From the NCBI RefSeq assembly GCF_054482595.1, contig NZ_CM137008.1: a stretch of DNA of 64,000 nucleotides; one strand, 5' to 3'. The notes under the pieces were generated by a model that was not told the DNA's origin, ran no database searches, and saw nothing but the letters and a program-made list of their open reading frames with translations. The stretch's first letter is position 1. Every line of letters starts with the position of its first letter. Shown here one piece after another: positions 3,358 to 64,000 of this stretch. The position numbers were made by a program, and so were the translations under genes.

Positions 3358-4779
3358 TCAGGCTTTCACATCACTCACTGCACCGACCGGAATATCAGCA
3401 TGAACAGGCTCGGGCGGTACTTTGCGATATTTATCCAGCAGATGAATCTGGATCCTGCGCAGCGTGTCGCCATTGAGGCGATAGAAACGGAAGTAGAGAA
3501 TCAGCGTTACCATGAAAAACAGAGTTGGTAGAGCAATCATAATAAACTGCATACCTAATAGGGCTTGCGTAGACTGTTCAACATTCGGTACATAGCCAAT
3601 CATCCCTAACACAACCGCAATGAAAAAAGCCGCAAAGGCTGAACCGCCCTTCACCACCATAGTCTGCACGGAGTAAGCGATACTTTCACAGCGTACGTGC
3701 AGTTTATATTCACCGTAATCAACGGTATCTGCCACCATGATGACCTGTAATACCCAGAAAAGCGCCGTTCCCACATTCAGCAAAATACCCGCAATCACAA
3801 TGAGGACGACGTTGTGATAGCTCATTAATGCCATTAACAGGAGAACACCACAGCTTAACACCGGAAGAATAGATGCTCCGGCCCATAAAATGCGTCGGGA
3901 TAATGATTTAACTAAGCGTGGGAAGAATACTAACGTCACCAGGTTAGCAGCTCCCGCATACGACAGATAATAGGGGAACAAATCCGCATCACCAATAACA
4001 TATGAGAAATAATAGATAGCAAATCCGGTAATAATGTTGCTGGCTACATTATAAGCAAGAGCCATACCCAAGAGGCATGAAAGCTGATCGTTTTTATAAA
4101 TTAGCGCAACGATGGCTTTAAGTGTCAGATGGCTTCCTTCAGCAGACGGTTGATTGTCTGACGAAAAGACTTCATGCACATTGCGCAAAGTGATGATGGT
4201 TGAAACAATAAAAAAGGCGATTAGTACCAGAGTGAACATCTGAAAGCCAAATCCCCGATCGCCACCGCCGACATAATTAACAAATGGTAGCGTCACACCT
4301 GCCGTAACAAAGCCTGCCAGACTGGCAAAAAAACGCGGATAAGGAACCAGTTGTTCGCGCTCACGTTTATCGAGCGTGATGGTTGGAACCAGCGACCAGA
4401 AGGGAATATCCATAATGGTGTAAGTCATGCCCCAGAGGATGTAGGTCACGCAAACAAAGACAATCTGAGTAGTACCTTCAAACAGATGCGCACTAAAGAG
4501 GAGAAATAAGATTACAGAGTTTGCCAACGTACCGATCAGGATCCAGGGTTTGAACTTACCCCATCGCGATCGCGTAGCATTTACAATCCATCCCATAATC
4601 GGATCGTTAATAGCATCCCAGATCCTCGCCACCAGAAACAAAGTACCGACCAAACCCACAGACAGCCCAACGACATCGGTGTAGTAATACATGAGGTACA
4701 TATACACAATGCCGATCGCAAAATCCTTCCCGAACGCTCCAAATCCATAACTGAGTTTTGTAGTCATTGAAATGCTCAT
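3358..4779 (-). CDS. melB: melibiose:Na+/H+ symporter
   Basis: Translation from the ATG at 4779 begins [20 protein letters not shown] and gives 473 aa; the track ORF starts 8 codons further upstream. Confidence 0.93.
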
Positions 4780-12480: not shown

Positions 12481-12519
12481 GCCAACCTTAAGAACTTAAG
12501 GTTGGCTTAATTTTGCTTT
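12481..12519 (+). terminator. rho-independent terminator downstream of adiC
   Basis: Perfect inverted repeat gccaaccttaag / cttaaggttggc followed by ttaattttgcttt. Confidence 0.75.
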
Positions 12520-14866: not shown

Positions 14867-14875
14867 TTGAATCTG

Positions 14876-15967
14876 ATGCGTTTTCTGCGCCGACCAATAT
14901 CGCTGCGCCAACGGCTGATATTGACCATCGGGGCCATTTTGTTGGTGTTTGAGCTGATCAGCGTCTTCTGGCTATGGCATGAAAGTACCGAGCAGATTCA
15001 GCTGTTTGAGCAGGCGCTACGCGACAATCGCAACAACGATCGCCACATCATGCGTGAGATCCGCGAGGCGGTCGCCAGCCTGATTGTCCCCGGCGTCTTT
15101 ATGGTCAGCCTGACGCTATTTATCTGCTATCAGGCGGTACGCCGCATCACCCGCCCGCTGGCGGAGCTGCAAAAAGAGCTGGAAGCGCGCACCGCCGACA
15201 ACTTAACGCCCATTGCCATTCACAGCGCCACCCTCGAAATCGAAGCGGTGGTTTCGGCGTTAAACGATCTGGTCAGTCGCCTGACCAGCACGCTGGATAA
15301 CGAAAGGTTGTTTACCGCTGACGTCGCGCACGAACTGCGAACGCCACTGGCGGGGGTACGTTTGCATCTGGAACTGCTGGCGAAAACGCATCACATTGAT
15401 GTAGCACCGTTAGTGGCACGGCTTGATCAGATGATGGAGAGCGTCTCCCAGCTGCTGCAACTGGCGCGTGCCGGACAGTCATTTTCTTCCGGTAATTATC
15501 AACATGTAAAACTGCTGGAAGATGTCATTCTCCCCTCGTATGACGAACTCAGTACCATGCTCGACCAGCGACAGCAAACCCTGCTATTGCCAGAGAGCAC
15601 CGCCGACATCACCGTTCAGGGTGATGCAACCCTGCTGCGGATGTTATTGCGAAACCTGGTAGAAAACGCCCATCGTTACAGCCCGCAAGGCAGCAACATT
15701 ATGATTAAGCTGCAAGAAGATGGCGGAGCGGTCATGGCAGTTGAAGATGAAGGACCAGGTATTGATGAGAGTAAATGCGGGGAGTTGAGTAAAGCGTTTG
15801 TACGTATGGACAGCCGTTATGGCGGGATTGGTCTGGGGTTAAGTATTGTCAGCCGCATTACACAGTTGCATCACGGGCAGTTTTTCCTGCAAAACCGGCA
15901 AGAGACTTCTGGCACGCGCGCCTGGATACGGCTGAAGAAAGATCAGTACGTGGCAAACCAGATATAA
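14876..15967 (+). CDS. basS: sensor histidine kinase BasS (PmrB)
   Basis: ~363 aa from ATG at 14876; H-box (ADVAHELRTPL) and HATPase motifs; the track ORF begins at a TTG 3 codons upstream. Confidence 0.9.
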   Translation: MRFLRRPISLRQRLILTIGAILLVFELISVFWLWHESTEQIQLFEQALRDNRNNDRHIMREIREAVASLIVPGVFMVSLTLFICYQAVRRITRPLAELQKELEARTADNLTPIAIHSATLEIEAVVSALNDLVSRLTSTLDNERLFTADVAHELRTPLAGVRLHLELLAKTHHIDVAPLVARLDQMMESVSQLLQLARAGQSFSSGNYQHVKLLEDVILPSYDELSTMLDQRQQTLLLPESTADITVQGDATLLRMLLRNLVENAHRYSPQGSNIMIKLQEDGGAVMAVEDEGPGIDESKCGELSKAFVRMDSRYGGIGLGLSIVSRITQLHHGQFFLQNRQETSGTRAWIRLKKDQYVANQI

Positions 15968-16032
15968 AGAAAGCTGCTGACCACCAGCACGCTGAACACG
16001 GTAGTTAAACTTTCATAAACACGGTTTTTCAT
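15943..16032 (-). CDS. pmrR: small membrane peptide PmrR (29 aa)
   Basis: Reverse strand translates exactly to MKNRVYESLTTVFSVLVVSSFLYIWFATY*; overlaps the last 25 nt of basS on the opposite strand; not in the supplied ORF track. Confidence 0.8.
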   Translation of the reverse strand: MKNRVYESLTTVFSVLVVSSFLYIWFATY

Positions 16033-16146
16033 TGCACTCTCCTCCGTTAACCTGGAGGAGAGTATGCGCGGCAGAGATTAAGTGAACCTTAAGAGTTCAA
16101 TTGTTGGTCTGATAAGACAGCGTCACATCAGGCCATCCGTTTCAGC

Positions 16147-17649
16147 TTATTCATCAATTCGCGGATGTTGCTGCACCAGGCGGGTACGTTTCGCCTGCAA
16201 ATCGGCAATCTCGTGGTCAATATCATCGATTTTCTGCTCGATATTATCGTAATGCTCGACGAGAATTTCCTTCGCTTCCTGTATATCTGACGCCGCCGGT
16301 GTTGCACCTTTCAACGGACGATTTGCCGTCTCTTTCATGGTTACGCCGGTGATTAAACCAACCACCGCCACTACCATCAGGTAATAGGCTGGCATCATCA
16401 GATTCTGCGAGCTTTCGACCAGCCAGGCCGCCAGTGTTGGCGTCAGACCGGCAACCAACACCGAAATATTAAATGCCGCCGCCAGCGCGCTGTAACGGAT
16501 ATGCGTCGGGAACATCGCTGGCAAGGTAGAAGCCATAACGCCCGTAAAGCAGTTAAGGATCACCGCCAGCATCAGTAACCCGGCAAAAATCAGGCCGATG
16601 ACGTTACTGTTAATCAGAATAAACGCCGGGATCGCCAACACAAACAGTGCAACACTACCAAGTAGCACAAACGGACGACGGCCAAAACGGTCACTCAGCA
16701 AGCCCATCACCGGCTGGACAAACAGCATACCGATCATAATGGCGATAATAATCAGCACCCCGTGGTCTTCGGAGTAATGCAGGTTATGCGACAAATAACT
16801 CGGCATATAGGTCAGCAACATGTAGTAAGTCACGTTGGTGGCAATTACCAGACCAATACATGTCAACAGGCTGCGCCAGTATTTAGTGGCAATCTCTTTA
16901 AACGAGACTTTCGGGCCATCCTGCAAACCTTCGCGGTCGCCCTGTTCCAGTTTATCAACATGCTGCTGGAACGCCGGAGTTTCTTCCAGCGCATGGCGCA
17001 GGTAAAGCCCGATAATCCCTAACGGCAGAGCAATAAAGAACGGAATACGCCAGCCCCAGTCGAGGAAGTTCGCTTCGCCGACAATGGTCGAAATTAACAC
17101 CACCACGCCCGCACCCAGCACAAACCCGGCAATAGAACCGAAGTCCAGCCAGCTGCCCATAAAGCCACGTTTACGGTCAGGGGAGTATTCCGCAACAAAT
17201 ATCGACGCCCCGGTATATTCACCGCCGACCGAGAAACCTTGTGCCATCTTACAGATCAACAGCAGAATCGGTGCCCAAATACCAATCGTGTCGTAGGACG
17301 GTATTAAGCCAATACAGAACGTACTGATCGACATAATCACAATAGTGATAGCGAGGATCTTCTGGCGACCATATTTATCGCCCAACATACCAAAGAAGAG
17401 TCCGCCAAGCGGTCGAATCAGAAAGGGAACGGAGAAAGTGGCAAGTGCAGCAACCATCTGCACGCTGGGGTCAGCCCCCGGGAAAAAAACTTTACCTAAT
17501 GCGTAAGCAACAAAACCATAAACACCAAAATCAAACCATTCCATTGCATTACCCAGTGATGCTGCGGTAATGGCTTTACGCAGTTTACCGTCATCAATAA
17601 TGGTGACATCACGAAGGGTAATCGGTTTTACTTTTTTCCTTTTCAGCAT
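16147..17649 (-). CDS. proP: proline/glycine betaine:H+ symporter (osmosensor)
   Basis: 500 aa from internal ATG (MLKRKKVKPITLRDVTIIDDG...); MFS transporter with C-terminal coiled-coil region. Confidence 0.92.
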   Translation of the reverse strand: MLKRKKVKPITLRDVTIIDDGKLRKAITAASLGNAMEWFDFGVYGFVAYALGKVFFPGADPSVQMVAALATFSVPFLIRPLGGLFFGMLGDKYGRQKILAITIVIMSISTFCIGLIPSYDTIGIWAPILLLICKMAQGFSVGGEYTGASIFVAEYSPDRKRGFMGSWLDFGSIAGFVLGAGVVVLISTIVGEANFLDWGWRIPFFIALPLGIIGLYLRHALEETPAFQQHVDKLEQGDREGLQDGPKVSFKEIATKYWRSLLTCIGLVIATNVTYYMLLTYMPSYLSHNLHYSEDHGVLIIIAIMIGMLFVQPVMGLLSDRFGRRPFVLLGSVALFVLAIPAFILINSNVIGLIFAGLLMLAVILNCFTGVMASTLPAMFPTHIRYSALAAAFNISVLVAGLTPTLAAWLVESSQNLMMPAYYLMVVAVVGLITGVTMKETANRPLKGATPAASDIQEAKEILVEHYDNIEQKIDDIDHEIADLQAKRTRLVQQHPRIDE

Positions 17650-17912: not shown

Positions 17913-18791
17913 TTACACCAAATTTACAGAGAAGATTTCCTCGAGCATTGCCCCCGCCAGACGCTGCGCTGAACAGAGTCGTGGCATCCCCAGCGCGACA
18001 GTTTGCCAGCGTTGGGTCACTGACCAGCAAACGGGTTGTTTATCTGCCGTGGTCCACTTTCCCAGCCAACTTAAAAAATCAGCATGATCCCCGCCCGTCG
18101 GAACGGTCGAAGAGGCAAACCACTGATGGTAATAGTGACGCGTGGTCGGGGCCGCATTGATACTCTCTGCCAGATGTTGTGTCGCTTTCACGCGCAAATC
18201 ACCCAGCAACAACGCCACCGCTTGCGGGCTTCCCAGACGACAGGCATCGCCAAATGCCCCCCAACGCAACTCTTCGAGAACGATAAAACAGCGCCCAGGC
18301 AACGACCAGGCGTTATACGCCCCAGCACGCCAGCGGGTAAAAATTTGCTCGCTCTGTTCACCCGCCTGCACCAGTAGGCCTCGTTGCGTTAACGCCTTTT
18401 CCTTCCAGCGACAACGGGCTGAAAACCACTCATACAAGGCGGCAATTTGCTGGGGGAGCTCCGGGAAAGCAGAGTGCTGGCGGTGATCCATTTTTTGCAG
18501 CAGCGCCAGATGCTGCGCGATCTGCGTCAGTGCCAGATGACCGGGATCCAGCATCGACGCCAGTTTTTCCACCAATGTCAAACGCAGGCTAAGCGGCGCA
18601 TTTAACATTCCGCCGTTCGTCCATGTCTGAAGCTGCACGCGCGCAAGAAGTTCCTGCATCAGTCGTTCACGAAACTGCTGCTGATGGGCTTGTGGAAGGC
18701 GGGCATCATCGCCCTGCGCCAGATCCACTAAAAAGCGGGGATAAACCGACTCCAGCACGCGACCGGGGCCGTCAAGTAACGTCTTGGTCAA
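17913..18791 (-). CDS. yjcZ: uncharacterised protein YjcZ
   Basis: 292 aa; position downstream of crfC as in K-12; 4-bp overlap with crfC stop. Confidence 0.8.
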   Translation of the reverse strand: MTKTLLDGPGRVLESVYPRFLVDLAQGDDARLPQAHQQQFRERLMQELLARVQLQTWTNGGMLNAPLSLRLTLVEKLASMLDPGHLALTQIAQHLALLQKMDHRQHSAFPELPQQIAALYEWFSARCRWKEKALTQRGLLVQAGEQSEQIFTRWRAGAYNAWSLPGRCFIVLEELRWGAFGDACRLGSPQAVALLLGDLRVKATQHLAESINAAPTTRHYYHQWFASSTVPTGGDHADFLSWLGKWTTADKQPVCWSVTQRWQTVALGMPRLCSAQRLAGAMLEEIFSVNLV

Positions 18792-21016
18792 TATCGTTCT
18801 GCCGTGAAAAGTGTTTGAATATCATCGCGTAACAGCTGGGCGTCGGTGTAAATCCAGCCGTGAGTCATCACAGTCTGCTGCAATTGCTGCTGCATCAGCC
18901 TGACCACCGATTCATTTTGTTGACGCAGAGCCAGACTTTCGCGTAAACGCGTCTGTAATTCCGTCAAACATGAAGCGAACTCAGCGAAAAAAGTATTCAT
19001 GCCTGCCGTAACAGATTCATCGACCTGCTCTGCCAGAACTTTAGCCATTTGTTGGCAATAGAGATCGACTTCTGCACTTAATGCTCGTTGCAACACACTG
19101 TAATCAACCGTTTCTGTCGGGGATTTCTCATTCCCCCGTCCCCAGTCGGGCTGATTCAACCAGCGCGAAAAAGTCTCACGCACAACGCCTAAACGCGTGC
19201 TCTGCTCGTCCGTTGCTTCCTGGCGCGAAATGACTTCACTGAACAGCTGGCGAGTGTTGAAGTGGGGAACTACGCCGTGAAAAACAGGAAAATGAAACCC
19301 AGGACGAAACCCTGACTCGCTCAATTCCATTTTGACTTGTTGTTCAATGGGGCGAATAACATCGGTTAACACCCGGCAAAGAGTGGATTCAAGCTCGGCA
19401 AAACGCAGCGTAAAGTCGCGACTGATGGTGTTCTGCGCCGTCTGTAACAGTGTCTCACAGCGGGTACGAATCTCGCTTAACGGCTCCGAATCATCCTGAA
19501 ACAAGGCGGCTAACTGCGCCTTCAGCGCATCTTGCTGTTGACGCAGAAAGTGGTTGGCGGAGGTCAGGGCCAGCTCGATTTCATGTTTAATCTCGCCGCT
19601 CACCTGCGCCTGATTGAGTTGCAATAGCTGCAAACTTTCTTCGATCTGGTGGATATTTTGCCGCAATTGTTCACAAGCGACGTTTAACCCGTGCGCACGA
19701 AAATCCAGGTATTCCCGCGCCTGCTGCGCGTAATTCAACAGTTTATGCGCGGCAGATCGCAGAGCATACAACGAGGCGTTAGCGTAAGCGGCATGAAGCA
19801 ACATCTGAATTGGCTGGGCGAACAGCGAATCTTCCCACAGCTGATCGGCAGCATGACGAATATGTTCGAGGTCCGCCAGATCGGCATGACGCCAGCGCCT
19901 GCCGAGCGCGGCATGGGCAAAATCTTCTACCCAGCGTTGTTGCTCTGGCGCTGGTAACTTACCGTTGTTGGCTAACTCATGGCGCGCCCGATTCGCCAGG
20001 TAGCCCCACATCGACGACACCGGAAATATCTGCTGTGGCGTAATACAGCCTTTCATCAGCGTCCCGGAAATCAGTGCCCGCACCTGGTCGGCGTCGTCAC
20101 TGTTACGATCCTGTTGATCGAACTTATTGACCAGCACATACAGCGGCACCGATTGCCCCACCGCCAAAATCGCCTCACGGACCTCTTCATCGGAGATCGA
20201 TTTCAGTTGCGTATAATCCAGCACCGCCAGTACCGCCGAGGCGCGTGCCAGCTGCTGGTTAAGCATTTTTTGCAGATGCGGTTGCCCGGCTTCATTTGGC
20301 CCGGGGGTATCCAGTAACGTCAACTGACCGGGATAACTCTCCAGCCCCGCCAGATGGACAAACTCCACTTCAATCACGGGAATATGCTCAATGGCGGCGT
20401 AAGCAGAAAAAGGAAAATCGACGTCCAGCGCCTTCGCCAGTCGCACCAAATCATTCAAACTTTTCAGACAATGAAAAATAGGCTGGGCACCCAGATAATA
20501 TTTTTCGAAAGCGACGCCATTTTCGATCCGCTGCATAAGCGCACGCATATCTTTATCTATTTCCAGCACATCGGTCAGATGCTTAATATCGCAATCACGC
20601 AGGCGTTGTTGTAATTGTTGAATTAAACAATCGATTGGCGCGACATGTGAAAAATGCAGTACCGGTTCTTTTTGCCCGGGTGTATGGCGAATAAGCGTCG
20701 GCAGGGCAGTCATTGGGCGATTGCGATTAGGCAGAACCTCCGTACCAACAATGGCATTAATGGTGGTTGATTTCCCTGCTTTCATAGTACCGACAATCGC
20801 CAGCACCATTTCCAGTTGGGAAATTTTACGCAACTCATTATTCAGCATCGCGTGACGCTCGGCGATATTAGGCTGACTCCAGGGTAAAGCCAGTTGTGGC
20901 GCATCGTCTCCGGGTACAGAGAGAGGCATTTTTTCCAGTAACTGCAACTGTTGGCGAGAAAGCTGTAACAGGCGTTCAGCCTCCTGACTTAACTCATACA
21001 GGGTCTGTGTGTACAT
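18788..21016 (-). CDS. crfC: dynamin-like GTPase CrfC (YjdA)
   Basis: 742 aa; P-loop GTPase motif GTMKAGKST near N-terminus; long coiled-coil C-terminal part. Confidence 0.85.
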   Translation of the reverse strand: MYTQTLYELSQEAERLLQLSRQQLQLLEKMPLSVPGDDAPQLALPWSQPNIAERHAMLNNELRKISQLEMVLAIVGTMKAGKSTTINAIVGTEVLPNRNRPMTALPTLIRHTPGQKEPVLHFSHVAPIDCLIQQLQQRLRDCDIKHLTDVLEIDKDMRALMQRIENGVAFEKYYLGAQPIFHCLKSLNDLVRLAKALDVDFPFSAYAAIEHIPVIEVEFVHLAGLESYPGQLTLLDTPGPNEAGQPHLQKMLNQQLARASAVLAVLDYTQLKSISDEEVREAILAVGQSVPLYVLVNKFDQQDRNSDDADQVRALISGTLMKGCITPQQIFPVSSMWGYLANRARHELANNGKLPAPEQQRWVEDFAHAALGRRWRHADLADLEHIRHAADQLWEDSLFAQPIQMLLHAAYANASLYALRSAAHKLLNYAQQAREYLDFRAHGLNVACEQLRQNIHQIEESLQLLQLNQAQVSGEIKHEIELALTSANHFLRQQQDALKAQLAALFQDDSEPLSEIRTRCETLLQTAQNTISRDFTLRFAELESTLCRVLTDVIRPIEQQVKMELSESGFRPGFHFPVFHGVVPHFNTRQLFSEVISRQEATDEQSTRLGVVRETFSRWLNQPDWGRGNEKSPTETVDYSVLQRALSAEVDLYCQQMAKVLAEQVDESVTAGMNTFFAEFASCLTELQTRLRESLALRQQNESVVRLMQQQLQQTVMTHGWIYTDAQLLRDDIQTLFTAERY

Positions 21017-21753: not shown

Positions 21754-21771
21754 TTGTATTGTGATCGGTAA

Positions 21772-22247
<476 letters not shown>

Positions 22248-24720: not shown

Positions 24721-24808
24721 TAGGTCGGATAAGACGCCCCGGCGTCGCATCCGACAATGTGCAGGCGTTGATGCCGGATGCGGTGCAAGCACCTTATCCG
24801 GCCTACAG
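24721..24808. repeat. REP element pair between phnD and phnE
   Basis: ggtcggataagacgccccggcgtcgcatccgaca ... gatgccggatgcggtg...ccttatccggcctaca. Confidence 0.8.
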
Positions 24809-34173: not shown

Positions 34174-34241
34174 AAACTCGGCCTCGCAACAAAGTTAATA
34201 CAAGGTAGGCAAAGGTGCCTGTTACGAGTAGAGGAGGATTC

Positions 34242-36503
34242 TCAATTCTCTTGCCCCAGCGCCTGCGCCAACTGCGCACGGGTAAAGGGTTTGCGCAACA
34301 GCGCCACGTCTGGCAGCGCGGGGTTATGGCTGGGGCGTAAATCCTGACCGCTGATGAGTAGCAGCGTCAGGTGCGGGTAAAGTTTGCGGGCCGCATTGAC
34401 CACTTCTGCGCCGCTCATGCCGCCGGGGAGCATTAAATCGCTGATAAAAATATCGATTTCTGCTGATGCCGCCAGCAGATCCAGCGCCTGTTCGCCGCTG
34501 CTTGCTTCCAGCGTCAAATAGCCCAGCAGGTGCAACTGTTCGCAGATGGTCTGGCGCACCGCGGCTTCATCTTCCAGCACTAACACCAGTTTATCGCCGC
34601 TGACAGAAGCCTGTTCTACTGCCGCTGGCGATAGGTTTTTCGCCGCCGTCAGCGCGCGGGGAAGCTGTAATCTGACCGTTGTCCCCTGCCCCGGCGCGCT
34701 TTCAATTTCAACGCGCCCACCGGACTGGCGCACAAAACCATAGACCATCGACAAACCCAGCCCGCTGCCGCTGCCCGTCTGTTTGGTGGTAAAGAATGGC
34801 TCAAATACCTGGCTTTTCACCGCCTGCGACATACCGCTGCCATGATCGATGACCTCCAGTGCCACCATGTCCTGACGCTGCCCACTGCTGCGAGTAACGC
34901 GCTGATTCCAGGTACGAATTTTGATGATTCCCGTCTGCCCTTCCATCGCGTCACGGGCGTTCATCACCAGGTTGATGATGGCATTTTCCAGTTGGCTGAC
35001 GTCAATCCACGCGGGCCACGCCGGAGACTGCGCTTCAATCTCCAGCGCCAGCGTTGCCGGTAAGGAGTGGCGCATTAATTCGCTTAACTCTTCCAGCAAT
35101 GTTTTCAGTTCAACGGCTTGCGGATGTAAGGACTGCTTGCGGGAAAACGCCAGCAGTCGTTGTGTCAGTAGCGCCCCACGTTCGGCAGCTTGCAGCGCCC
35201 GCTGTATTCGCGGCGCGTCTGGCGAGTCCGGATTCACCAGCTCCAGGCTGCCAATAATCACCGCCAGCAGATTATTAAAATCATGGGCCAGCCCGCCCGT
35301 CAGTTGCCCGACCGCTTTCAGTTTCTGGCTGTGTAATAGCGCCTCTTCCAACCCCTGCCGCTCAGTTTGGGCAATCTCCATCTGCGTGGTCTTCTCTTTT
35401 AGCAGCCGTGAGGTTCGTTCGAGTGACTCGGTATTGCGGGCAAAAACGTTAAAGGCGCGCGCCAGTTCACCCAACTCATCACGCCGCTGTAACGCCGGAA
35501 AAGTGACGTCCGCTTCGCCGTACGCCAGGCGGCTCATGGCGCGGGAAATCGCCGTCAGGTTAGTGCCGAGGTTGCGATAGATATACCAGCCGGCAAACGC
35601 GGTGATCACCACCGCTAACAGGGCGAAAATCATGATCACCCTCTCGCCGGAGCGCAAATCCTGGTAACTTTGCGCCACGCGCTGACCGGAGAGCGTCGCC
35701 ACCTGTTCGGCGTAACGGTTGATGTCGCCATTGAGGATCGCCACCAGCGCTTTGATGTGAAACATATACCAGCTGATTGCCAGATCGCTTTGCTCCAGAG
35801 CGGCAGAAAGCGGCGCGAGTTTACGCATTTCATCATTGAAATCATTGAGTAACGTATTAACCAATGGCATATCGCTGTGGGTCGGCAACGCAGACATTAC
35901 CCCGACCAGTTGATGAATAATCGCCTGCGGCGCGGGGGTGGCAATAGCGGCAACAATCAGTCGGTTCATCTCGTTAAGCAAAATATCATCTTGCGCGTGA
36001 GTGACTTTTTGCAGATGCCGCAGATAACTTAAGTTTTGATACAGCGAACTTAACAGCGCGTTGCGCTCCAGATGCCGCCTTTGCCCGCGCTCCAGCATAC
36101 CGCCGACGCTGGTTTGCAGTTCGTTGCTACGCGTGATGATTCGCGTCACCAGCCCGGCTTCCTGCTGCGCTAAAGGCGCGTTCGCCAGTTGTGCAAGCGA
36201 GCTTTTTAATGCCCGCTGTGTCTCCTGCAACCGCTCGGCTTCGCCTTTATATTCCAGCGCTCCCACCACCTGCGACAATCGCACCGCCGCCGTTGCCACG
36301 TTTGCCGTGTCGCGCGCCAGATTCAGGCTGCCGGTCATATCATCCACCGTTTGCTGCTGCACCAGCTCCTGCATCTGGCTGGCATGACGAAAGCCCATTA
36401 CCGCCACGCCGCTGACCATCAACGTCACCGCCACCACCAGCAAATTCAAAAGCAGCAATCGCCCGCGCGCGCTGGCAAAAAAATGACGTCCGGGGTGCGC
36501 CAT
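34242..36503 (-). CDS. hybrid sensor histidine kinase (periplasmic sensor, HAMP, HisKA, HATPase, C-terminal receiver; no HPt domain)
   Basis: ~753 aa from ATG at 36503 (MAHPGRHFF...) with GGAG 8 nt upstream; two TM segments flank a ~300 aa periplasmic region; H-box GGLAHDFNNLL; G-boxes DHGSGM / GSGLGLSMV; receiver with ISDLMLPGG; protein ends ~25 aa after the receiver. Confidence 0.85.
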   Translation of the reverse strand: MAHPGRHFFASARGRLLLLNLLVVAVTLMVSGVAVMGFRHASQMQELVQQQTVDDMTGSLNLARDTANVATAAVRLSQVVGALEYKGEAERLQETQRALKSSLAQLANAPLAQQEAGLVTRIITRSNELQTSVGGMLERGQRRHLERNALLSSLYQNLSYLRHLQKVTHAQDDILLNEMNRLIVAAIATPAPQAIIHQLVGVMSALPTHSDMPLVNTLLNDFNDEMRKLAPLSAALEQSDLAISWYMFHIKALVAILNGDINRYAEQVATLSGQRVAQSYQDLRSGERVIMIFALLAVVITAFAGWYIYRNLGTNLTAISRAMSRLAYGEADVTFPALQRRDELGELARAFNVFARNTESLERTSRLLKEKTTQMEIAQTERQGLEEALLHSQKLKAVGQLTGGLAHDFNNLLAVIIGSLELVNPDSPDAPRIQRALQAAERGALLTQRLLAFSRKQSLHPQAVELKTLLEELSELMRHSLPATLALEIEAQSPAWPAWIDVSQLENAIINLVMNARDAMEGQTGIIKIRTWNQRVTRSSGQRQDMVALEVIDHGSGMSQAVKSQVFEPFFTTKQTGSGSGLGLSMVYGFVRQSGGRVEIESAPGQGTTVRLQLPRALTAAKNLSPAAVEQASVSGDKLVLVLEDEAAVRQTICEQLHLLGYLTLEASSGEQALDLLAASAEIDIFISDLMLPGGMSGAEVVNAARKLYPHLTLLLISGQDLRPSHNPALPDVALLRKPFTRAQLAQALGQEN

Positions 36504-36616
36504 ATCACGCTCCGTGAAGAAAAATCGCAATATGACAAATATGAACGGCTTCTGACATTTTGCATTTACTTTCCTGTGATGGAGTGCTGATATCGACAAC
36601 CTCGCAGGAGTCCACC
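36504..36616. promoter_or_regulatory. divergent promoter region between the sensor kinase gene and the ABC transporter operon
   Basis: 113-bp AT-rich spacer between divergent start codons; direct repeats tgacaaatatgaa (36533-36545) and tgacattttgcat (36553-36565) spaced 20 bp apart. Confidence 0.5.
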
Positions 36617-38137
36617 ATGAACAGCACGCCAGTTCTGGAGATGCGCAATATTGCCAAAGCCTTCGGCAAATTTTATGCACTCAAAGGGGTGGATTTGACG
36701 GTCTACCCTGGCGAGATCCATGCCCTGATGGGGGAAAACGGCGCGGGAAAAAGCACGCTGATGAAGGTGCTGGCGGGGGCGTATACCGCCACCAGCGGCG
36801 AGATCCTCATAGACGGCAAGCCCTTTCACATTCGCACGCCAAAAGATGCCTTAAGCGCCGGTATTACGCTGATTTATCAGGAGATGCAGCTGGCACCGAA
36901 TCTGTCGGTGGCAGAAAATATTTTTCTCGGCAGCGAGCTTTCCCACGGCGGGCTGGTGCAGCGTAAAGAGATGCTAGTGCAGGCGCAAAAAGTGATCGAC
37001 CGCCTCGGCGCGCAGTTTAACGCCAGCGATAAGGTCATGACGCTGACCATTGCCGAGCAACAGCAGGTCGAAATCGCCCGCGCACTACATCGCAACAGCC
37101 GCATTCTGGTGATGGACGAACCCACCGCTGCCCTCTCCTCCCGTGAAACTCACCGTCTGTTTGAACTGATTATGCGGCTGCGCGATGAAGGGATGGCGAT
37201 TATCTACATCAGCCACCGTATGGCGGAAGTGTATGAGCTTTCCGATCGCGTCAGCGTGCTGCGCGACGGGCAATACGTTGGCAGCCTGACCCGCGATAAC
37301 CTCAATGCCGGGGAGCTGGTGCGGATGATGGTCGGCAGGCCACTGAGCGATCTGTTCAATAAAGAGCGCGATATCCCGCTCGGTAAAGCCCGCCTGAATG
37401 TTCACCACCTGACCGACGGCGGCAAAGTCCAGCCGAGTAGCCTGCTGGTGCGTTCCGGCGAAATTGTTGGCCTCGCCGGACTGGTGGGTGCCGGACGTTC
37501 CGAACTGGCGCAGTTGATCTTCGGCGTGCGGAAAGCGACAGGCGGAATGATTGAAGTCGATGGTGAACCGGTGGTGATCCACTCCCCGCGCGAAGCCATC
37601 GATCTTGGCATTGGTTTTCTCACCGAAAACCGCAAAGAACAAGGCTTATTCCTTGAAATGGCAGCAGCCGAAAACATCACCATGGCAACCCTGGAGCGCG
37701 ATGCCCGCTGGGGAATGCTCAATCGCAAAAAAGCGCAAACCATTTCCGATGACGCCATTAAGTTGCTCAACATTCGCGTGCCTCACGCCCAGGTACGCGC
37801 GGGCGGGCTTTCCGGCGGCAATCAGCAAAAACTGTTGATCTCCCGCTGGGTGGCGATTGGCCCGCGCATTTTACTGCTCGATGAACCCACCCGCGGCGTG
37901 GACGTTGGCGCCAAAAGCGAGATCTACCGGATCATGAACGAGATGGCGCGCAAGGGCGTGGCGATCCTGATGATCTCCAGCGAACTGCCGGAGATAGTGG
38001 GAATGAGCGATCGCGTCTATGTGATGCGCGAAGGCAGCATTGCCGGTGAGTTAAACGGCAAAAACATCACCCAGGAAAACATTATGACCTTAGCGACTGG
38101 CGTCAACGACGCCCATTCCCAGGCGGTAACCTCATGA
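36617..38137 (+). CDS. sugar ABC transporter ATP-binding protein, tandem ABC domains (RbsA/CUT2-type)
   Basis: 506 aa from ATG at 36617 ([16 protein letters not shown]...) preceded by aggag; two Walker A motifs ([18 protein letters not shown]) and two signature motifs (LSGGNQQK in the second half). Confidence 0.88.
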
Positions 38138-39108
38138 CGACCTCTGCAAAAACCTCTGCCAAAAAAATGCTGATGAGCGATCTGATGCAAACGGTCGGCA
38201 TCTTGCCCATTTTGATTCTGATCGTGGCGGTATTTGGCTTTATCGCGCCAAACTTTTTTACCGAAAGCAACCTGCTGAATATTACCCGCCAGGCATCGAT
38301 CAACATTGTTCTGGCGGCGGGGATGACCTTCATCATTTTGACCGGCGGGATCGATCTTTCCGTGGGTTCGATCCTCGGCACCACAGCGGTGGCGGCGATG
38401 GTCGTCTCCCTTAGCCCTGAGTTCGCCATGCTGTCGATCCCGGCAGCGCTGATGCTCGGCCTGCTGCTGGGGCTGTTCAACGGCGCGCTGGTGGCCTTTG
38501 CCGGATTGCCACCGTTTATCGTCACGCTTGGCACCTATACGGCGCTGCGCGGGGCGGCGTATCTGCTGGCGGACGGCACCACGGTTATCAACTCCAACAT
38601 TAATTTCGAGTGGATAGGCAATAACTATCTCGGGCCGGTCCCGTGGCTGGTGGTGATTGCCCTCGCAGTGATTGTGCTGTGCTGGTTTATTCTGCGCCGC
38701 ACCACGCTTGGCGTTCATATCTACGCCGTCGGCGGCAATATGCAGGCGGCGCGTCTTACCGGCATTAAGGTCTGGCTGGTGCTGCTGTTTGTTTATGGTA
38801 TGAGCGGCCTGCTTTCTGGGCTTGGCGGGATTATGAGCGCCTCACGGCTGTACAGCGCCAACGGCAACTTAGGCATGGGTTACGAACTGGATGCCATTGC
38901 AGCGGTGATCCTCGGCGGCACCAGTTTTGTCGGCGGCATCGGCACCATCACCGGCACGCTGGTCGGCGCGCTAATTATCGCCACGCTCAACAATGGCATG
39001 ACCTTAATGGGCGTCTCTTACTTCTGGCAACTGGTGATCAAAGGGGCGGTGATCATCATTGCGGTGCTGATCGACAAATACCGTACCCGACACCATCAAA
39101 GTGCATAA
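38134..39108 (+). CDS. sugar ABC transporter permease (RbsC-like)
   Basis: 324 aa polytopic membrane protein; 4-bp ATGA overlap with the ATPase gene. Confidence 0.85.
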
Positions 39109-39126
39109 ACACATGAGGAATACAGC

Positions 39127-40068
39127 ATGAGATTGAAGCCCTTAGTGACCGCGCTCTATGCAGGCGCGCTGCTGACCGCAGCACCGTTCGCCCAGGCGAA
39201 AGAACTGAAATCGATAGGCGTAACGGTGGGCGATCTGGCGAACCCGTTCTTCGTGCAGATCACCAAAGGCGCGGAGCTGGAAGCACGCAAACTGGCAGGC
39301 GATAACGTCAAAGTGACGCTGGTTTCCAGCGGCTACGATCTGGGTCAGCAGGTGTCGCAGATAGACAACTTTATCGCCGCTAACGTCGATATGATTATCC
39401 TCAACGCTGCCGATTCAAAAGGGATCGGCCCAGCGGTGAAACGGGCGAAAGATGCCGGGATCGTAGTCGTCGCGGTTGACGTAGCGGCAGAAGGTGCTGA
39501 TGCCACCATCACCTCCGATAACACCCAGGCGGGCGAAATGGCCTGTAAATACATCACCGATCGCCTGAAAGGCAAAGGCAATGTGGTGATCATCAACGGC
39601 CCGCCGGTATCCGCCGTGCAAAACCGCGTCGAAGGATGCCAGACTGAATTTAAACGCCATCCTGACATCAAAGTGCTCTCTGACAACCAGAACGCGAAAG
39701 GCAGTCGTGAAGGCGGGCTGGAGGTAATGACGGGACTGCTGGCGGCAAATCCGAAGATCGACGGCGTATTTGCGATTAACGATCCCACCGCAATCGGTGC
39801 CGATCTGGCAGCAAAACAGGCGCAACGTAACGAGTTCTTTATTGTTGGTGTGGACGGAAGCCCGGACGCCGAAGAGGCGCTCAAGCGTGAGAACTCGTTG
39901 TTTGTCGCTACTCCGGCGCAAGATCCCCAGGTGATGGCAGCGAAAGCGGTGGAAATTGGCTACGACATTTTGCAGGGCAAACCTGCGCCGAAAGAGCCGG
40001 TGCTGATCCCGGTGACGATGATCGATAAAAACAACGTCGGCAATTACAAAGGCTGGACGGTGAAATAA
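39127..40068 (+). CDS. periplasmic sugar-binding protein (type I PBP, RbsB-like)
   Basis: 313 aa; signal peptide MRLKPLVTALYAGALLTAAPFAQA; RBS gagga upstream. Confidence 0.85.
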   Translation: MRLKPLVTALYAGALLTAAPFAQAKELKSIGVTVGDLANPFFVQITKGAELEARKLAGDNVKVTLVSSGYDLGQQVSQIDNFIAANVDMIILNAADSKGIGPAVKRAKDAGIVVVAVDVAAEGADATITSDNTQAGEMACKYITDRLKGKGNVVIINGPPVSAVQNRVEGCQTEFKRHPDIKVLSDNQNAKGSREGGLEVMTGLLAANPKIDGVFAINDPTAIGADLAAKQAQRNEFFIVGVDGSPDAEEALKRENSLFVATPAQDPQVMAAKAVEIGYDILQGKPAPKEPVLIPVTMIDKNNVGNYKGWTVK

Positions 40069-40122
40069 GTCCACACGCCGGGCGGCGCAGCTGCCCGGTC
40101 ACCGCTAAGGAGAACGCTTTCG

Positions 40123-40806
40123 ATGAAACGCTCCGCTATAAACGACATTCTCGGCCATACACGGCAATTCTTTTCGCAACATGACGTACATCTGCCGCCC
40201 TTTGCCAGTTTCTCGCCTGCTCAATGGCAGCAGCTCGACACCGCCGCGTGGGAGGAGGTTTTTGATCTTAAACTCGGCTGGGATGTTACCGCTTTTGGTC
40301 GCAACAACTTTGCAGCACACGGGCTGACGCTGTTTACCCTACGTAACGGCTCAGCAAAAGGAATGCCGTATGTGAAATGTTACGCCGAGAAGATCATGCA
40401 TGTGCGCGATGCGCAGGTCACGCCAATGCATTTTCACTGGCGTAAGCGTGAGGACATTATCAATCGCGGCGGCGGTAATTTAATTGTTGAACTGTGGAAT
40501 GCCGATAGTAACGAGCAAACGGCTGATAGTGACATTACGGTGGTGATCGACGGCTGCCGCCAGAAACATACTGCAGGCACTCAGTTGCGCCTGTCTCCCG
40601 GCGAAAGTATCTGCCTGCCGCCCGGCCTGTATCACAGCTTTTGGGCGGAAACCGGCTTTGGCGATGTTCTGGTTGGCGAAGTCTCTTCTGTCAATGACGA
40701 CGACCACGATAACCACTTTTTACAGCCACTGGACCGCTACAACCTGATTGACGAAGACGAACCTGCACAGTTGGTATTGTGTAACGAATACCGCCAGTTC
40801 CGCTGA
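40123..40806 (+). CDS. cupin-fold sugar isomerase, D-lyxose/D-mannose isomerase-like
   Basis: 227 aa; RBS aaggag; His-rich metal-site region (VTPMHFHWRKRE); length and context match my recollection of the characterised pathogenic E. coli D-lyxose isomerase family (not verified by search). Confidence 0.7.
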   Translation: MKRSAINDILGHTRQFFSQHDVHLPPFASFSPAQWQQLDTAAWEEVFDLKLGWDVTAFGRNNFAAHGLTLFTLRNGSAKGMPYVKCYAEKIMHVRDAQVTPMHFHWRKREDIINRGGGNLIVELWNADSNEQTADSDITVVIDGCRQKHTAGTQLRLSPGESICLPPGLYHSFWAETGFGDVLVGEVSSVNDDDHDNHFLQPLDRYNLIDEDEPAQLVLCNEYRQFR

Positions 40807-40820
40807 ATAAGGATAACGTT

Positions 40821-41681
40821 ATGCCATTGATTTCTCTCGCTGAAGGGCTGGCACATGCCCGCGAACATCACTATTCGTTAGGTGCGTTTAATGTGCTGGA
40901 CTCGCACTTTTTACGCGCCTTGTTTGCTGCTGCCAGACAAGAACGTTCGCCCTTTATTATCAACATTGCCGAAGTACATTTTAAATATATCTCGCTGGAT
41001 TCCCTGGTCGAGACAGTGAAATTTGAAGCGGCGCGTCATGCCATTCCGGTGGTGTTAAATCTCGATCACGGACTGCATTTTGAATCGGTGGTGCAAGCGT
41101 TGCGGCTGGGATTCAGCTCGGTAATGTTTGATGGCTCCACGCTGGGGTATGAAGAAAATGTCCGCCAGACGCGGGAAGTGGTGAAAATGTGCCATGCCGT
41201 TGGCGTATCGGTAGAAGCTGAACTGGGCGCGGTGGGTGGCGACGAAGGCGGTGCACTCTATGGCCATGCCGATGAATCCCTGTTTACCGATCCGCAACTG
41301 GCGCGTGATTTTGTCGACCGTACCGGCATTGACGCGTTGGCCGTGGCGATTGGCAATGCACACGGCAAATATCGCGGCGAACCGAAACTCGATTTCCCGC
41401 GCCTCGACGCTATCCGCCAGCAGGCTGCTATCCCGCTGGTATTACACGGCGGCTCAGGGATTAGCGATGCCGATTTCCGCCGCGCCATCGAACTGGGTAT
41501 CCACAAAATCAATTTCTACACTGGCATGTCGCAAGCGGCGCTGGCTGCCGTTGAGGCCCGAATGGCGTACCGTCAGCCGATGTATGACGAGTTTGCCGAG
41601 TTACTGCTGGCAGTGGAAGCCGCCATCAGCGATACGGTTGCACAACAGATGCGTATTTTTGGCAGTGCGGGGCAGGCATGA
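40821..41681 (+). CDS. class II ketose-bisphosphate aldolase family protein (GatY/KbaY/FbaA-like)
   Basis: 286 aa; alignable by eye with GatY (NLDHG, SVMFDGS, SVEAELG, ALAVAIGNAHG, LVLHGGSG motifs). Confidence 0.8.
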   Translation: MPLISLAEGLAHAREHHYSLGAFNVLDSHFLRALFAAARQERSPFIINIAEVHFKYISLDSLVETVKFEAARHAIPVVLNLDHGLHFESVVQALRLGFSSVMFDGSTLGYEENVRQTREVVKMCHAVGVSVEAELGAVGGDEGGALYGHADESLFTDPQLARDFVDRTGIDALAVAIGNAHGKYRGEPKLDFPRLDAIRQQAAIPLVLHGGSGISDADFRRAIELGIHKINFYTGMSQAALAAVEARMAYRQPMYDEFAELLLAVEAAISDTVAQQMRIFGSAGQA

Positions 41682-42679
41682 TGGAGCGTAAAGGAATTAT
41701 CGCCGCAGGCAATATGTTGGTTGACCACGTCCATCAGATTATCCAGTGGCCAGAGCGCGGCTGGCTGGCGGAGATCACCCACAGCGAACGCTCCACCGGC
41801 GGTGCGCCGCTTAACGTCCTGCTGACGCTGGCGAAAATGCGCACCGGGCTGCCGTTACAGGCGGTTGGGCTAATCGGTCAGGACAGCGACGGCGATTACA
41901 TCATGGCGATGCTTGAGCAATATCACGTCAATCGTCAGCATGTGCAGCGCACTACCTTTGCCCCGACGTCGATGTCGCAGGTGATGACAGACCCAAGCGG
42001 GCAGCGGACGTTTTTCCATTCGCCGGGTGCAAACAGACTTTTGGATCTTCCGGCGTTCGATCAGCTCGATAACACCATGAAGATTTTCCATCTCGGCTAT
42101 TTACTGTTGCTCGACAGCCTGGATATGCCGGACGATGTTTACGGCACCCGTAGCGCACGCCTGCTGGCGCAAATGCGTGATACTGGCTTTGAAACCTCAC
42201 TCGACCTGGTCTCCCGTAAGGGCGATCCGCGTTATCAGCCGCTGGTGCTGTCCGCGTTGCGCCATCTGGATTATCTGGTAATTAACGAACTGGAGGCCGG
42301 GGAGTTTAGCGGGCTGGAAATTCGGTTACCCAACGGCGAACCGCATATCGCGCATATTGCTGCCGCCGCGCGTGAACTGTTAGATGCGGGCGTGCGCCAG
42401 CGGGTGGTGATCCACTGCCCGGAAGGGGCGTGGGGAGAGACCCCAGAACAGGGCGGCGTGTGGATCCCTTCGCAAAAGTTAGAACAACGGGAAATTATCG
42501 GCAGCGTCGGCGCGGGCGATGCATTTTGTGCCGGATTTTTATATGGCTGCCATGAACGCTGGACGCTTACCGAGAGCATCAAACTGGCACACGCCTGCGC
42601 GCGGGCAAGCCTGTTATGCGCCAATGCCATCGACGGGGCGAAAACGCTGGAAGAGCTGCAAACAGAAATGTCGGATTAA
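41678..42679 (+). CDS. pfkB/ribokinase-family sugar kinase
   Basis: 333 aa; C-terminal GAGDAF motif (GSVGAGDAFCAGFLYG); 4-bp overlap with the aldolase gene. Confidence 0.8.
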   Translation: MMERKGIIAAGNMLVDHVHQIIQWPERGWLAEITHSERSTGGAPLNVLLTLAKMRTGLPLQAVGLIGQDSDGDYIMAMLEQYHVNRQHVQRTTFAPTSMSQVMTDPSGQRTFFHSPGANRLLDLPAFDQLDNTMKIFHLGYLLLLDSLDMPDDVYGTRSARLLAQMRDTGFETSLDLVSRKGDPRYQPLVLSALRHLDYLVINELEAGEFSGLEIRLPNGEPHIAHIAAAARELLDAGVRQRVVIHCPEGAWGETPEQGGVWIPSQKLEQREIIGSVGAGDAFCAGFLYGCHERWTLTESIKLAHACARASLLCANAIDGAKTLEELQTEMSD

Positions 42680-43383: not shown

Positions 43384-43673
43384 GGTTACACTCCGCATCA
43401 TTCATCTGATTAATCATTGTGCGTACTTCTTGTCGAAGTGAAAGCTGAAAGTAATATAAATAATAAAAATATAAGTCAGGTCACATTATTGATGATAGTA
43501 ATAAATATGCCGTACTTTTCCCTCTTCAGCACAAATGCCTAATAAAATGGATCGTTCCGCTCACACTTCCACTTATTAAAGTCGCAATTTCCCAATTATG
43601 ATAACGCCAGCTTTAAATGACGTATTTTGCATGGATTACATATTTACGACATAAATGATAAATGGAGATTTAT

Positions 43674-53835: not shown

Positions 53836-53837
53836 GG

Positions 53838-60731: not shown

Positions 60732-64000
<3,269 letters not shown>

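Follow-up and report, generated by a model that had tools for sequence, protein, structure and literature searches.

The open reading frame on the reverse strand at positions 15943–16032 is almost certainly a bona fide pmrR gene, and nothing is at odds with this identification. It begins with ATG, ends with TGA and comprises 29 codons plus the stop; reverse-strand translation of the window (the whole 64,000 nt stretch of DNA that was analysed) gives the product MKNRVYESLTTVFSVLVVSSFLYIWFATY. The peptide matches the NCBIfam model NF033224 (PmrR equivalog) over its full length, residues 1–29 falling on profile positions 1–29 of 29, with a score of 74.2 bits (cut-off 30, E = 5e-21). Comparison with annotated PmrR, as proposed in the original prediction, showed it to be identical at 29/29 residues (100%) to K-12 b4703, 'small regulatory membrane protein PmrR' (UniProt PMRR_ECOLI). 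The window is 99.992% identical to E. coli strain XH990, where RefSeq labels the same ORF 'LpxT activity modulator PmrR'. Translation, family match and the annotations of XH990 and K-12 confirm the original assignment of these positions to PmrR. The gene, its 25 bp overlap with basS and its PmrA box were already known (PMC8129183, PMC8004244). The ORF, PmrA box, Shine-Dalgarno sequence, family membership, conservation and coding selection described here were observed directly in this analysis.

For the PmrA dependence, translation and membrane location of pmrR, and for its inhibition of LpxT, the evidence comes from the literature. A Ribo-RET start-site signal has been reported for E. coli pmrR, His-tagged PmrR was membrane-associated upon fractionation, and the phenotype of a pmrR deletion was rescued by the wild-type gene and not by an ATG to TAA mutant (PMC11429745). 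[quoted passage not shown] 2012, cited in PMC8004244 and PMC8129183). In pmrA-constitutive E. coli, deletion of the PmrA box at pmrR led to loss of polymyxin B resistance, an effect suppressed by deletion of lpxT (PMC8129183). The published role of pmrR lies in lipid A remodelling and in polymyxin and bile resistance. Only three residues of the peptide are charged (K2, R4 and E7), residues 9–27 form a hydrophobic 19-mer (Kyte-Doolittle mean 1.94), and PmrR is predicted to be a single-pass membrane peptide. It would insert as one helix into the inner membrane, with the basic N-terminus cytoplasmic and residues 9–27 spanning the bilayer, and there bind LpxT and inhibit its conversion of the lipid A 1-phosphate into the 1-diphosphate. 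Inhibition would leave position 1 available for EptA to add phosphoethanolamine and reduce the negative charge of the surface; polymyxin resistance would rise while deoxycholate resistance and Fe3+ binding would fall, feeding back on PmrB. Some growth phenotypes of E. coli pmrR are independent of lpxT (PMC11429745), and LpxT may therefore not be the sole target.

The gene lies tail to tail with the sensor kinase gene basS/pmrB (14867–15967, forward strand; ORF, annotation and an NCBIfam PmrB match of 643.6 bits), for which PGAP places the start at a TTG (14867), the ATG at 14876 being the equivalent of the K-12 start. The two coding sequences share 25 nt (15943–15967, with the basS stop at 15967), as had been predicted; the overlap is identical in K-12, where pmrR is also annotated, and was previously stated in PMC8004244 and shown also in PMC8129183. 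The original description placed eight codons and the stop of pmrR within the overlap. The stop does lie there, together with seven complete codons and one nucleotide of codon 22. The further claim of constraint in two frames on two strands holds formally but hardly in effect: in this antisense phase the third codon positions of pmrR face those of pmrB, and the PmrB residues encoded in the overlap belong to a variable tail beyond the conserved kinase terminus ...RAWV.F. Within Escherichia, 7/25 sites vary in the overlap, compared with 12/65 in the rest of pmrR. Five of these seven are third-position changes that are synonymous in pmrR and silent in basS, and one silent change turns the basS stop from TAA to TGA. 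Genera differ in the extent of the overlap, with values between −8 and +57 nt. The overlap adds little extra constraint, and is probably a by-product of a variable C-terminal extension of PmrB running into the end of pmrR, not a conserved functional unit.

The transcripts overlap further than the coding sequences. A 3′ terminus mapped in K-12 at 4332300–4332312 (peak 4332305), corresponding to 15836–15848 on the reverse strand of the window, is assigned to pmrR transcripts (PMC10687069, Supplementary Data 2 and 4). With the K-12 coordinates transferred to the window, it lies 100 nt beyond the pmrR stop, making the pmrR mRNA antisense to the final ~125 nt of basS. PmrA-activated, convergent transcription of pmrR might, besides encoding PmrR, thereby exert antisense or 'excludon' control that damps or shapes basS expression. 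Apart from the position of the terminus, this is favoured by the naming of pmrR-basS among convergent excludons recognised from RNA-seq coverage (PMC12288877), and by the finding that the region downstream of pmrB alters both the pmrB mRNA level and the colistin MIC (PMC8004244). The endpoints of the latter series, +86, +103 and +126, correspond to 16053, 16070 and 16093 of the window, however, and the results are equally explained by the presence or absence of pmrR promoter elements. The extent of the coding overlap is also unconserved, and a basS transcript 3′ end was not found among those of the mapped termini of PMC10687069 that were read. While pmrR-basS matches the convergent excludons of PMC12288877 in being listed by name and in having overlapping transcripts, the regulatory consequence is putative for this pair, and antisense control of basS is considered unlikely.

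That the locus encodes a small protein is supported by its conservation. The pmrR gene and promoter are present in 5408 of the 5426 complete E. coli genomes, and the gene was annotated in all 60 genomes sampled from this species (60/60), each match being an ungapped 151 nt span. Disruption of the frame in close relatives that retain basS had been named as evidence against the gene; no disruption was seen in any of six further Escherichia sequences examined, namely E. coli K-12 and five Escherichia genomes that include E. albertii and E. whittamii. Eighty pmrB loci of other species were gathered and a small ORF was sought without using its own sequence (Salmonella is outside these 80 loci, E. 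coli-specific peptide patterns having been used). A PmrA box, a hairpin and an ORF of 28–33 aa were found beside pmrB and convergent with it in 57/80 loci (one per species), and inspection of Citrobacter koseri showed a regular pmrR together with its box and hairpin. Across genera the ratio of synonymous to nonsynonymous change is ~1.15 in the annotated frame, as against 0.26 and 0.08–0.13 in control frames, and the third codon positions of pmrR are the most variable. Despite nucleotide divergence, the length of 28–33 codons and the F...W..[TS][YF] ending are retained over ~15 genera, F21/22, W25/26 and the terminal [TS][YF] being invariant or nearly so in the PmrR-like peptides. A profile built from 30 aa peptides alone recovered the window ORF from among 635 small ORFs (E = 1.6e-6).

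The 30 aa PmrR-like peptides occur in Klebsiella, Raoultella, Kosakonia, Kluyvera, Phytobacter and others, and fall below the NCBIfam model; the Klebsiella type is exemplified by MQKINFREYLAVATALVIIVAFFHQWVLTF. In Klebsiella and other genera such peptides are filed merely as 'hypothetical protein'. An unnamed PmrR-like peptide driven by a PmrA box adjoins pmrB in Klebsiella pneumoniae and many other Enterobacteriaceae, where it could matter for colistin resistance.

The promoter of pmrR carries a perfect match to the PmrA (BasR) box pattern YTTAAK-N5-YTTAAK, CTTAAGGTTCACTTAAT, at 16077–16093 (reverse strand), 61 nt upstream of the ATG. Only two perfect boxes are found in the window (0.03 expected), one at pmrR and the other in the eptA-basRS promoter of the same regulon (12495–12511, forward strand). 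In 56 further loci, a box lies 57–63 nt ahead of the start codon. The hexamer CATACT (16061–16066, reverse strand), 10 nt past the box, is the presumed −10 element, judging from its spacing: NNNACT is nearly invariant at a fixed distance from the PmrA box among the aligned loci, and at the eptA promoter the spacing from box to −10 (GAGCAT) is likewise 10 nt. Phosphorylated PmrA would bind the direct-repeat box at the −35 position, with CATACT presumably serving as the −10, and the PmrA-dependent transcript is predicted to start at about 16053–16054 (K-12 4332094–6). Translation would be driven by the strong Shine-Dalgarno sequence of the short leader, GGAGGAG (16039–16045, reverse strand), which lies 6–8 nt before the ATG; its GAGG/GGAG core is kept in 57/57 loci. 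A cloned pmrR reporter region did not show low-Mg induction (PMC11429745).

Immediately upstream is proP (16147–17649, reverse strand; annotated, NCBIfam ProP 1088 bits), which is co-directional with pmrR, its stop codon being 53 nt from the PmrA box. The upstream gene is co-directional in 55/56 loci. It is of ProP size in Escherichia and most Citrobacter, and of UvrB size in most others, where one Klebsiella locus (L023) was confirmed as UvrB.

Between promoter and start codon lies a conserved leader hairpin, ACTCTCCTCC-AGGTTAAC-GGAGGAGAGT (16035–16064, reverse strand), recognised by folding, by covariation and in the Rfam STnc630 structure. Its 5′ arm starts within the presumed −10 hexamer and its 3′ arm constitutes the pmrR ribosome-binding site, including the Shine-Dalgarno sequence. 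The predicted stability is −19.4 kcal/mol (z about −5.8), and the fold survives in the context of the proP 3′ UTR. In a hairpin-only alignment, from which the pair counts were taken, pairing amounted to 81.8%, against 37–49% in slid controls. The hairpin is more stable on the pmrR-sense strand in 39/57 loci, and G.U pairs outnumber A.C pairs in total (36 vs 29), the A.C pairs being mainly in the doubtful outer positions; assignment of the strand from these pairs is only suggestive.

In K-12, an RNA 3′ terminus at 4332112–4332126 (peaks 4332117/8) marks the end of transcripts from proP (PMC10687069, Supplementary Data 2 and main text). Transferred to the window, it falls at 16022–16036 on the reverse strand (peaks 16030/31), at the foot of the hairpin. 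The hairpin was absent from the terminator scan of the window and is without a U tract on either strand, what comes after the stem being GCAAUGAAAAA on the pmrR strand and AUGCGCGG on the opposite one. It was consequently rejected as a canonical or bidirectional intrinsic terminator. The mapped K-12 terminus nonetheless sits 4–5 nt beyond the stem although the U tract is missing, and the 3′ end may result from trimming or from a non-canonical mode of termination. The terminator scan did report a second hairpin, TGCTGGTGGTCAGCA, which together with a T-rich run lies within the pmrR coding sequence (15965–15989, reverse strand). It is seen in 8/57 loci and has no conserved place outside Escherichia, and this restriction to E. 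coli-like sequences makes its significance doubtful. As a conserved end of the upstream transcript, this hairpin (15975–15989) was rejected, both for this restriction and because the mapped 3′ end is at the leader hairpin.

Since an RNA 3′ end maps to the foot of the leader hairpin, this structure may insulate pmrR from proP or uvrB read-through. RNA reading in from proP (or uvrB) would contain both arms, and would either stop at the hairpin or have its ribosome-binding site locked, whereas PmrA-started RNA would begin in or past the 5′ arm and be the sole translated form. In folding calculations, the pairing probability of the Shine-Dalgarno sequence is 1.00 in read-through RNA and 0.2–0.3 in the first 54–74 nt from the predicted start at 16053. 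In full-length pmrR folds it also pairs with downstream UCUUUC/pyrimidine runs (0.85), and the idea that it is free throughout the PmrA-started mRNA was therefore rejected, being true for the nascent RNA only. A pmrR promoter placed within the 3′-end hairpin of the upstream gene, together with the linked extension of the PmrR family to 30 aa peptides, is put forward tentatively, as an arrangement that is possible but still somewhat doubtful. If true, PmrR output would be strictly PmrA-dependent despite the position of the gene 0–300 nt from an unrelated, actively transcribed one, and the hairpin may account for the exclusive PmrA control of a tiny gene behind proP or uvrB, which could likewise bear on colistin resistance.

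The same region matches the Rfam family RF02052, 'Enterobacterial sRNA STnc630' (15936–16101, reverse strand), at 177.1 bits (gathering score 55) over model positions 1–166 of 166. A high-scoring, full-length match to a family typed as 'Gene; sRNA', whose conserved secondary structure includes the pmrR leader hairpin, might be taken to mean that the locus yields a non-coding regulatory RNA and that the small ORF is incidental. Substitutions are, however, of the protein type, with a synonymous excess in the annotated frame only, and both the ORF length and the F...W..[TS][YF] ending are kept across ~15 genera. There is also published evidence of translation, membrane association and start-codon-dependent complementation (PMC11429745), and the Rfam model covers the PmrA box, which is promoter DNA. 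A solely non-coding role is thus highly improbable. The STnc630 stretch consists of the promoter and leader of pmrR together with its coding sequence, for which the label 'sRNA' is unfitting: the 166 nt are the same, but Rfam types them as a non-coding sRNA and here they represent a small-protein gene. No mention of the name STnc630 was found in the searchable literature.

A chance open frame antisense to the 3′ end of basS would find some support in the abundance of small ORFs (the 8 kb surrounding pmrR are overlapped by 117 of 20 aa or longer), but just 25/90 nt are antisense to basS, and conservation, family match and published expression data refute this explanation, leaving it a negligible probability. 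Since the window holds 635 start-to-stop ORFs of 20–60 aa, the size of the pmrR ORF is by itself no better than chance; what sets it apart are the family match, identity to K-12, the PmrA box, GGAGGAG and the coding substitution pattern. As originally pointed out, a 60 aa cut-off hides pmrR, which was listed only once the cut-off was lowered to 20 aa. The suspicion that other small proteins were hidden in the same way was borne out by ytcB (18 aa; 62265–62321, reverse strand). The practical lesson is that a 60 aa ORF cut-off conceals real genes, two of them (pmrR and ytcB) in this window.

PmrR has been characterised in K-12 and in Salmonella enterica (Kato et al. 2012), and the window carries this same gene, from a different E. 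coli strain: peptide, location between proP and basS, 25 nt overlap and PmrA box are as for b4703, with zero differences. Two other E. coli proteins, MgrB and MgtS, resemble PmrR in being shorter than 50 aa, in having a single membrane helix and in being controlled by a two-component system; like PmrR, they are induced by an envelope or ion stress regulon and bind a larger membrane protein. Their sequences are unrelated to PmrR, their targets are PhoQ and MgtA/PitA rather than LpxT, and their genes, unlike pmrR, do not overlap a kinase gene. For the leader hairpin, the closest parallel in logic is the transposase gene of IS10 and IS50 (Tn10/Tn5), in which fold-back pairing inhibits the translation of read-in transcripts only. 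There, the pairing sequence precedes the transcription start of the gene itself, so that only transcripts reading in are silenced. The arrangement proposed for pmrR shares this logic, sequence preceding the start being able to pair with the ribosome-binding site; it differs in that both the mechanism and the transcription start are predicted, and in that the hairpin coincides with an RNA 3′ end, so that its main role may be to form the end of the upstream transcript.

The reverse strand of the window at 15943–16032 carries an ATG-to-TGA frame of 29 codons (translation MKNRVYESLTTVFSVLVVSSFLYIWFATY) that was hidden from the ORF track, as the original prediction had it, and appears once the cut-off is set at 20 aa. 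ORF size alone is unremarkable, since the window holds 635 start-to-stop ORFs of 20–60 aa. The peptide matches the NCBIfam equivalog model NF033224 ('LpxT activity modulator PmrR') end to end with 74.2 bits (curated cut-off 30), and is identical to its K-12 counterpart b4703 ('small regulatory membrane protein PmrR') and to UniProt PMRR_ECOLI; a Pfam search with it gave no match. In E. coli XH990, which is 99.992% identical to the window, PGAP places pmrR (WP_000797657.1) at exactly matching coordinates. The model match, the K-12 identity and this annotation confirm that the ORF encodes PmrR, a gene already known and annotated. Charged residues occur only at positions 2, 4 and 7, and residues 9–27 form a hydrophobic segment of 19 residues (mean Kyte-Doolittle hydropathy 1.94), a composition that fits a single membrane helix with its N-terminus inside.

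The finding is correct but not new, because the locus, its overlap with basS, its PmrA box and its phenotypes have all been published. The E. coli locus has been shown with both the overlap and the box, and deletion of the box in a pmrA-constitutive strain led to loss of polymyxin B resistance and restored deoxycholate resistance, the polymyxin phenotype being suppressed by lpxT deletion (PMC8129183). The gene has also been described as a 90-bp ORF with a 25-bp overlap (PMC8004244), and pmrR-basS has been named as a convergent excludon (PMC12288877). The start codon was seen by Ribo-RET, His-tagged PmrR was located in membranes, and a growth defect in low Mg was complemented by wild-type pmrR while an ATG to TAA allele failed to do so; part of the pmrR phenotypes were lpxT-independent (PMC11429745). 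Experiments might be worthwhile only for the leader hairpin and for the Klebsiella-type homologues, which have gone unrecognised.

That other small proteins could be hidden in the window was also borne out. An intact ytcB of 18 aa (MHLQLIKDNIHSVVICYT), too short even for a cut-off of 20 aa, was found at 62265–62321 (−) in the interval from acs to nrfA; at the DNA level it matches K-12 b4821 exactly, and PGAP left it unannotated in XH990. Rfam searches matched repeat arrays of naRNA4 (REP325-type nucleoid-associated RNA), in tandem units of 100 nt plus 113 nt, with five copies between yjdM and yjdN (21768–22247), two near gltP (53837–54098) and one after phnD (24723–24803). They also found SECIS_2 in fdhF (51317–51371, +, 87 bits), an element to be expected because formate dehydrogenase H is encoded with a selenocysteine codon. 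The crfC/rdcA gene is an intact 742-aa ORF (18788–21016, −) and is 'frameshifted' in XH990 because that record is without one base at window 20232, probably a sequencing error in either the window or the XH990 record. Where K-12 carries rpiB and the als (allose) operon, between yjdP and yjcS, the window (about 34200–43400) has genes for a hybrid sensor kinase, a sugar ABC transporter, a D-lyxose/D-mannose-type isomerase, an aldolase, a kinase and a response regulator.

The basS (pmrB) ORF on the plus strand ends at 15967, so that 25 nt (15943–15967) are common to the two genes, tail to tail, and the K-12 overlap is of the same length. The predicted length was right, but the shared bases amount to the stop, seven complete codons and a single base of codon 22 rather than eight codons and the stop. 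The overlap had further been taken to constrain the sequence in two frames, and here the constraint appears weak. Third positions of pmrR face third positions of basS, and among seven Escherichia sequences the variable sites number 7 of 25 in the overlap and 12 of 65 elsewhere in pmrR. Of the seven in the overlap, five are third-position changes that leave both proteins as they are (synonymous in pmrR, silent in basS), one of them turning the basS stop from TAA to TGA. The overlapped PmrB residues (..DQYVANQI) sit past the conserved end of the kinase (..RAWV.F), in a tail that varies by genus in both length and sequence, and the overlap is unconserved as a result, with values across loci of 25, 7, 4, 0, −3, −8, 11, 22, 29, 42 and 57 nt. 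At least ten length classes, in all three phases, were seen in the pmrB loci of other species (L002–L081). Taken together, the coinciding third positions, the variable tail and the varying length make the overlap look like a side effect of drift in the position of the PmrB stop codon. At its other end, pmrB is started by PGAP at TTG 14867 (366 aa), abutting the basR stop, and in the K-12 annotation at an ATG equivalent to 14876 (363 aa).

Conservation, which the original prediction had offered as a check, held both within E. coli and between genera. Of 5426 complete E. coli genomes, 5408 contain the 151 nt from the pmrR stop codon to the PmrA box (at least 95% identity, bar one match at 94.8%); in a sample of 60 records spread over the ranking, every one showed an ungapped match and an annotated pmrR. 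Two matches of note are NZ_CP074033.1 and NZ_CP083870.1. In strain PI7 the match ends at window 15937, with pmrR and proP kept and the pmrB side unmatched beyond. Four matches are on plasmid-typed records, one of them an 18-kb record with 94.8% identity.

Eighty pmrB loci were retrieved from one-genome-per-species contigs with PmrB as the query, so the sample is free of bias towards loci that keep pmrR. In 57, a PmrA box (at most one mismatch) lies 57–63 nt upstream of an ORF of 28–33 codons convergent with the end of pmrB; these include Escherichia, Citrobacter, Klebsiella, Raoultella, Kosakonia, Kluyvera, Phytobacter, Pseudocitrobacter, Yokenella, Trabulsiella, Pluralibacter and Enterobacter-like strains. 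The 23 loci without box and ORF belong to Pectobacterium, Rahnella, Rouxiella, Ewingella, Chimaeribacter and similar genera, and to seven Enterobacteriaceae (e.g., Pseudescherichia, Superficieibacter) in which pmrB directly abuts the neighbouring gene. Across genera, variation in pmrR is highest at third codon positions, and the synonymous/nonsynonymous ratio, counted on codons with a one-base difference, is about 1.15 in the annotated frame versus 0.26 and 0.08–0.13 in two control frames. In the PmrR-like peptides F22 and W26 do not vary, and the C-terminal [TS][YF] is retained. By its substitution pattern, pmrR behaves as a protein-coding gene.

Many of the positional homologues, from Klebsiella, Raoultella, Kosakonia, Kluyvera, Phytobacter and others (L012–L064), are 30-aa peptides with the consensus MQK...F...W.L[TS][YF], encoded between uvrB and pmrB and predicted to be driven by the PmrA box. 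Against NF033224 they give no match, or 18 bits, and databases name them 'hypothetical' or 'uncharacterised' protein. The Klebsiella pneumoniae ORF (4050–4142, −, of locus L023) adjoins pmrB, has a PmrA box, and encodes a peptide (MQKINFREYLAVATALVIIVAFFHQWVLTF) found in at least 1000 contigs. When a profile built from the 30-aa peptides alone was run against the 635 small ORFs, the window PmrR came first with E=1.6e-6 and the runner-up had 0.3. Among the papers searched, those naming PmrR, Klebsiella and LpxT together were by title reviews or E. coli/Salmonella studies, and those consulted gave no description of a Klebsiella PmrR.

Upstream of pmrR, on the same strand, are a Shine-Dalgarno sequence GGAGGAG (16039–16045), an inverted repeat ACTCTCCTCC/GGAGGAGAGT (16035–16064), a presumed −10 hexamer CATACT (16061–16066) and, 10 bases upstream of the hexamer, a perfect PmrA box CTTAAGGTTCACTTAAT (16077–16093). 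A search of the 64 kb for the motif YTTAAK-N5-YTTAAK gave two perfect matches versus 0.03 expected, the second lying before eptA, which heads the eptA-basRS operon and where the spacing from box to hexamer is also 10 nt. An NNNACT hexamer is nearly invariant across loci at this distance. A PmrA-dependent transcript would start about 7 nt past the hexamer, near 16053–16054, so that the predicted start is level with the end of the 5′ arm of the repeat or past it. The Rfam family RF02052 ('enterobacterial sRNA STnc630') has a full-length match at 15936–16101 (−; 177 bits, gathering score 55), making the candidate sRNA and the small-protein gene one locus. What Rfam types as the sRNA STnc630 is actually promoter, leader and coding sequence of pmrR; the STnc630 model takes in even the PmrA box, and its consensus includes the helix of the leader hairpin.

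These positions bear on a deletion series in which colistin MICs were 0.5, 4 and 16 µg/mL with +86, +103 and +126 bp downstream of pmrB, an effect ascribed mainly to structure in the pmrB 3′ UTR (PMC8004244). Counted from the basS stop, the endpoints are window 16053, 16070 and 16093. The first is the predicted pmrR start site and leaves out the −10 hexamer; the second, 4 nt upstream of the hexamer, includes it and the whole hairpin and excludes the box; the third is the distal end of the box, which is then complete. The endpoints track the promoter elements, so the pmrR promoter and the 'critical 3′ UTR' coincide. Because the host had pmrR on its chromosome as well, what matters may be copy number or convergent transcription.

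The hairpin formed by the repeat is predicted at −19.4 kcal/mol (z about −5.8) and stays in the context of the proP 3′ UTR; a comparable one occurs in about 54 of the 57 loci (mean z −4.6). On a MAFFT alignment, not structure-fitted, 81.8% of hairpin cells pair, compared with 37–49% after shifting the partners by one to three columns, and 45 cells have changes on both sides, versus 5–19 in these shifted controls; one pair occurs as AU, CG, GC and GU. The 5′ arm begins within the NNNACT hexamer, and the helix pairs the presumed −10 and start region with the Shine-Dalgarno sequence, which belongs to the 3′ arm. Of 56 loci, 55 have an upstream gene in the same orientation as pmrR, ending −4 to 310 nt from the box; this gene is ProP-sized in Escherichia and most Citrobacter loci and UvrB-sized (about 673 aa) in most others, and was confirmed as ProP in the window and UvrB in K. 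pneumoniae.

The hairpin is not a canonical intrinsic terminator, as no U tract follows the stem on either strand. A K-12 3′-end map nevertheless has a terminus on the pmrR strand at 4332112–4332126, corresponding to window 16036–16022 at the hairpin foot; its authors have the upstream gene terminating within the pmrR CDS, and assign to pmrR a second terminus at 4332300–4332312 (PMC10687069), which is window 15848–15836. Predicted pairing of the Shine-Dalgarno sequence is 1.00 in RNAs entering from proP and 0.2–0.3 in the first 54–74 nt of an RNA begun at 16053; full-length folds pair it again, with downstream pyrimidine runs (0.85), so this contrast would be only co-transcriptional. Deletion of the PmrA box left the Shine-Dalgarno sequence and CDS intact downstream of proP, yet gave pmrR-null behaviour (PMC8129183), which is circumstantial support for insulation by the hairpin.

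We tentatively suggest a possible dual role, in which the hairpin would mark or make the 3′ end of transcripts from proP or uvrB and, in read-through RNA, conceal the pmrR ribosome-binding site, while RNA started by PmrA would lack the 5′ arm and so escape this lock. The pmrR gene may thus have its promoter inside the 3′ hairpin of the upstream gene, insulating it from read-through, a logic shared with the fold-back inhibition of IS10.
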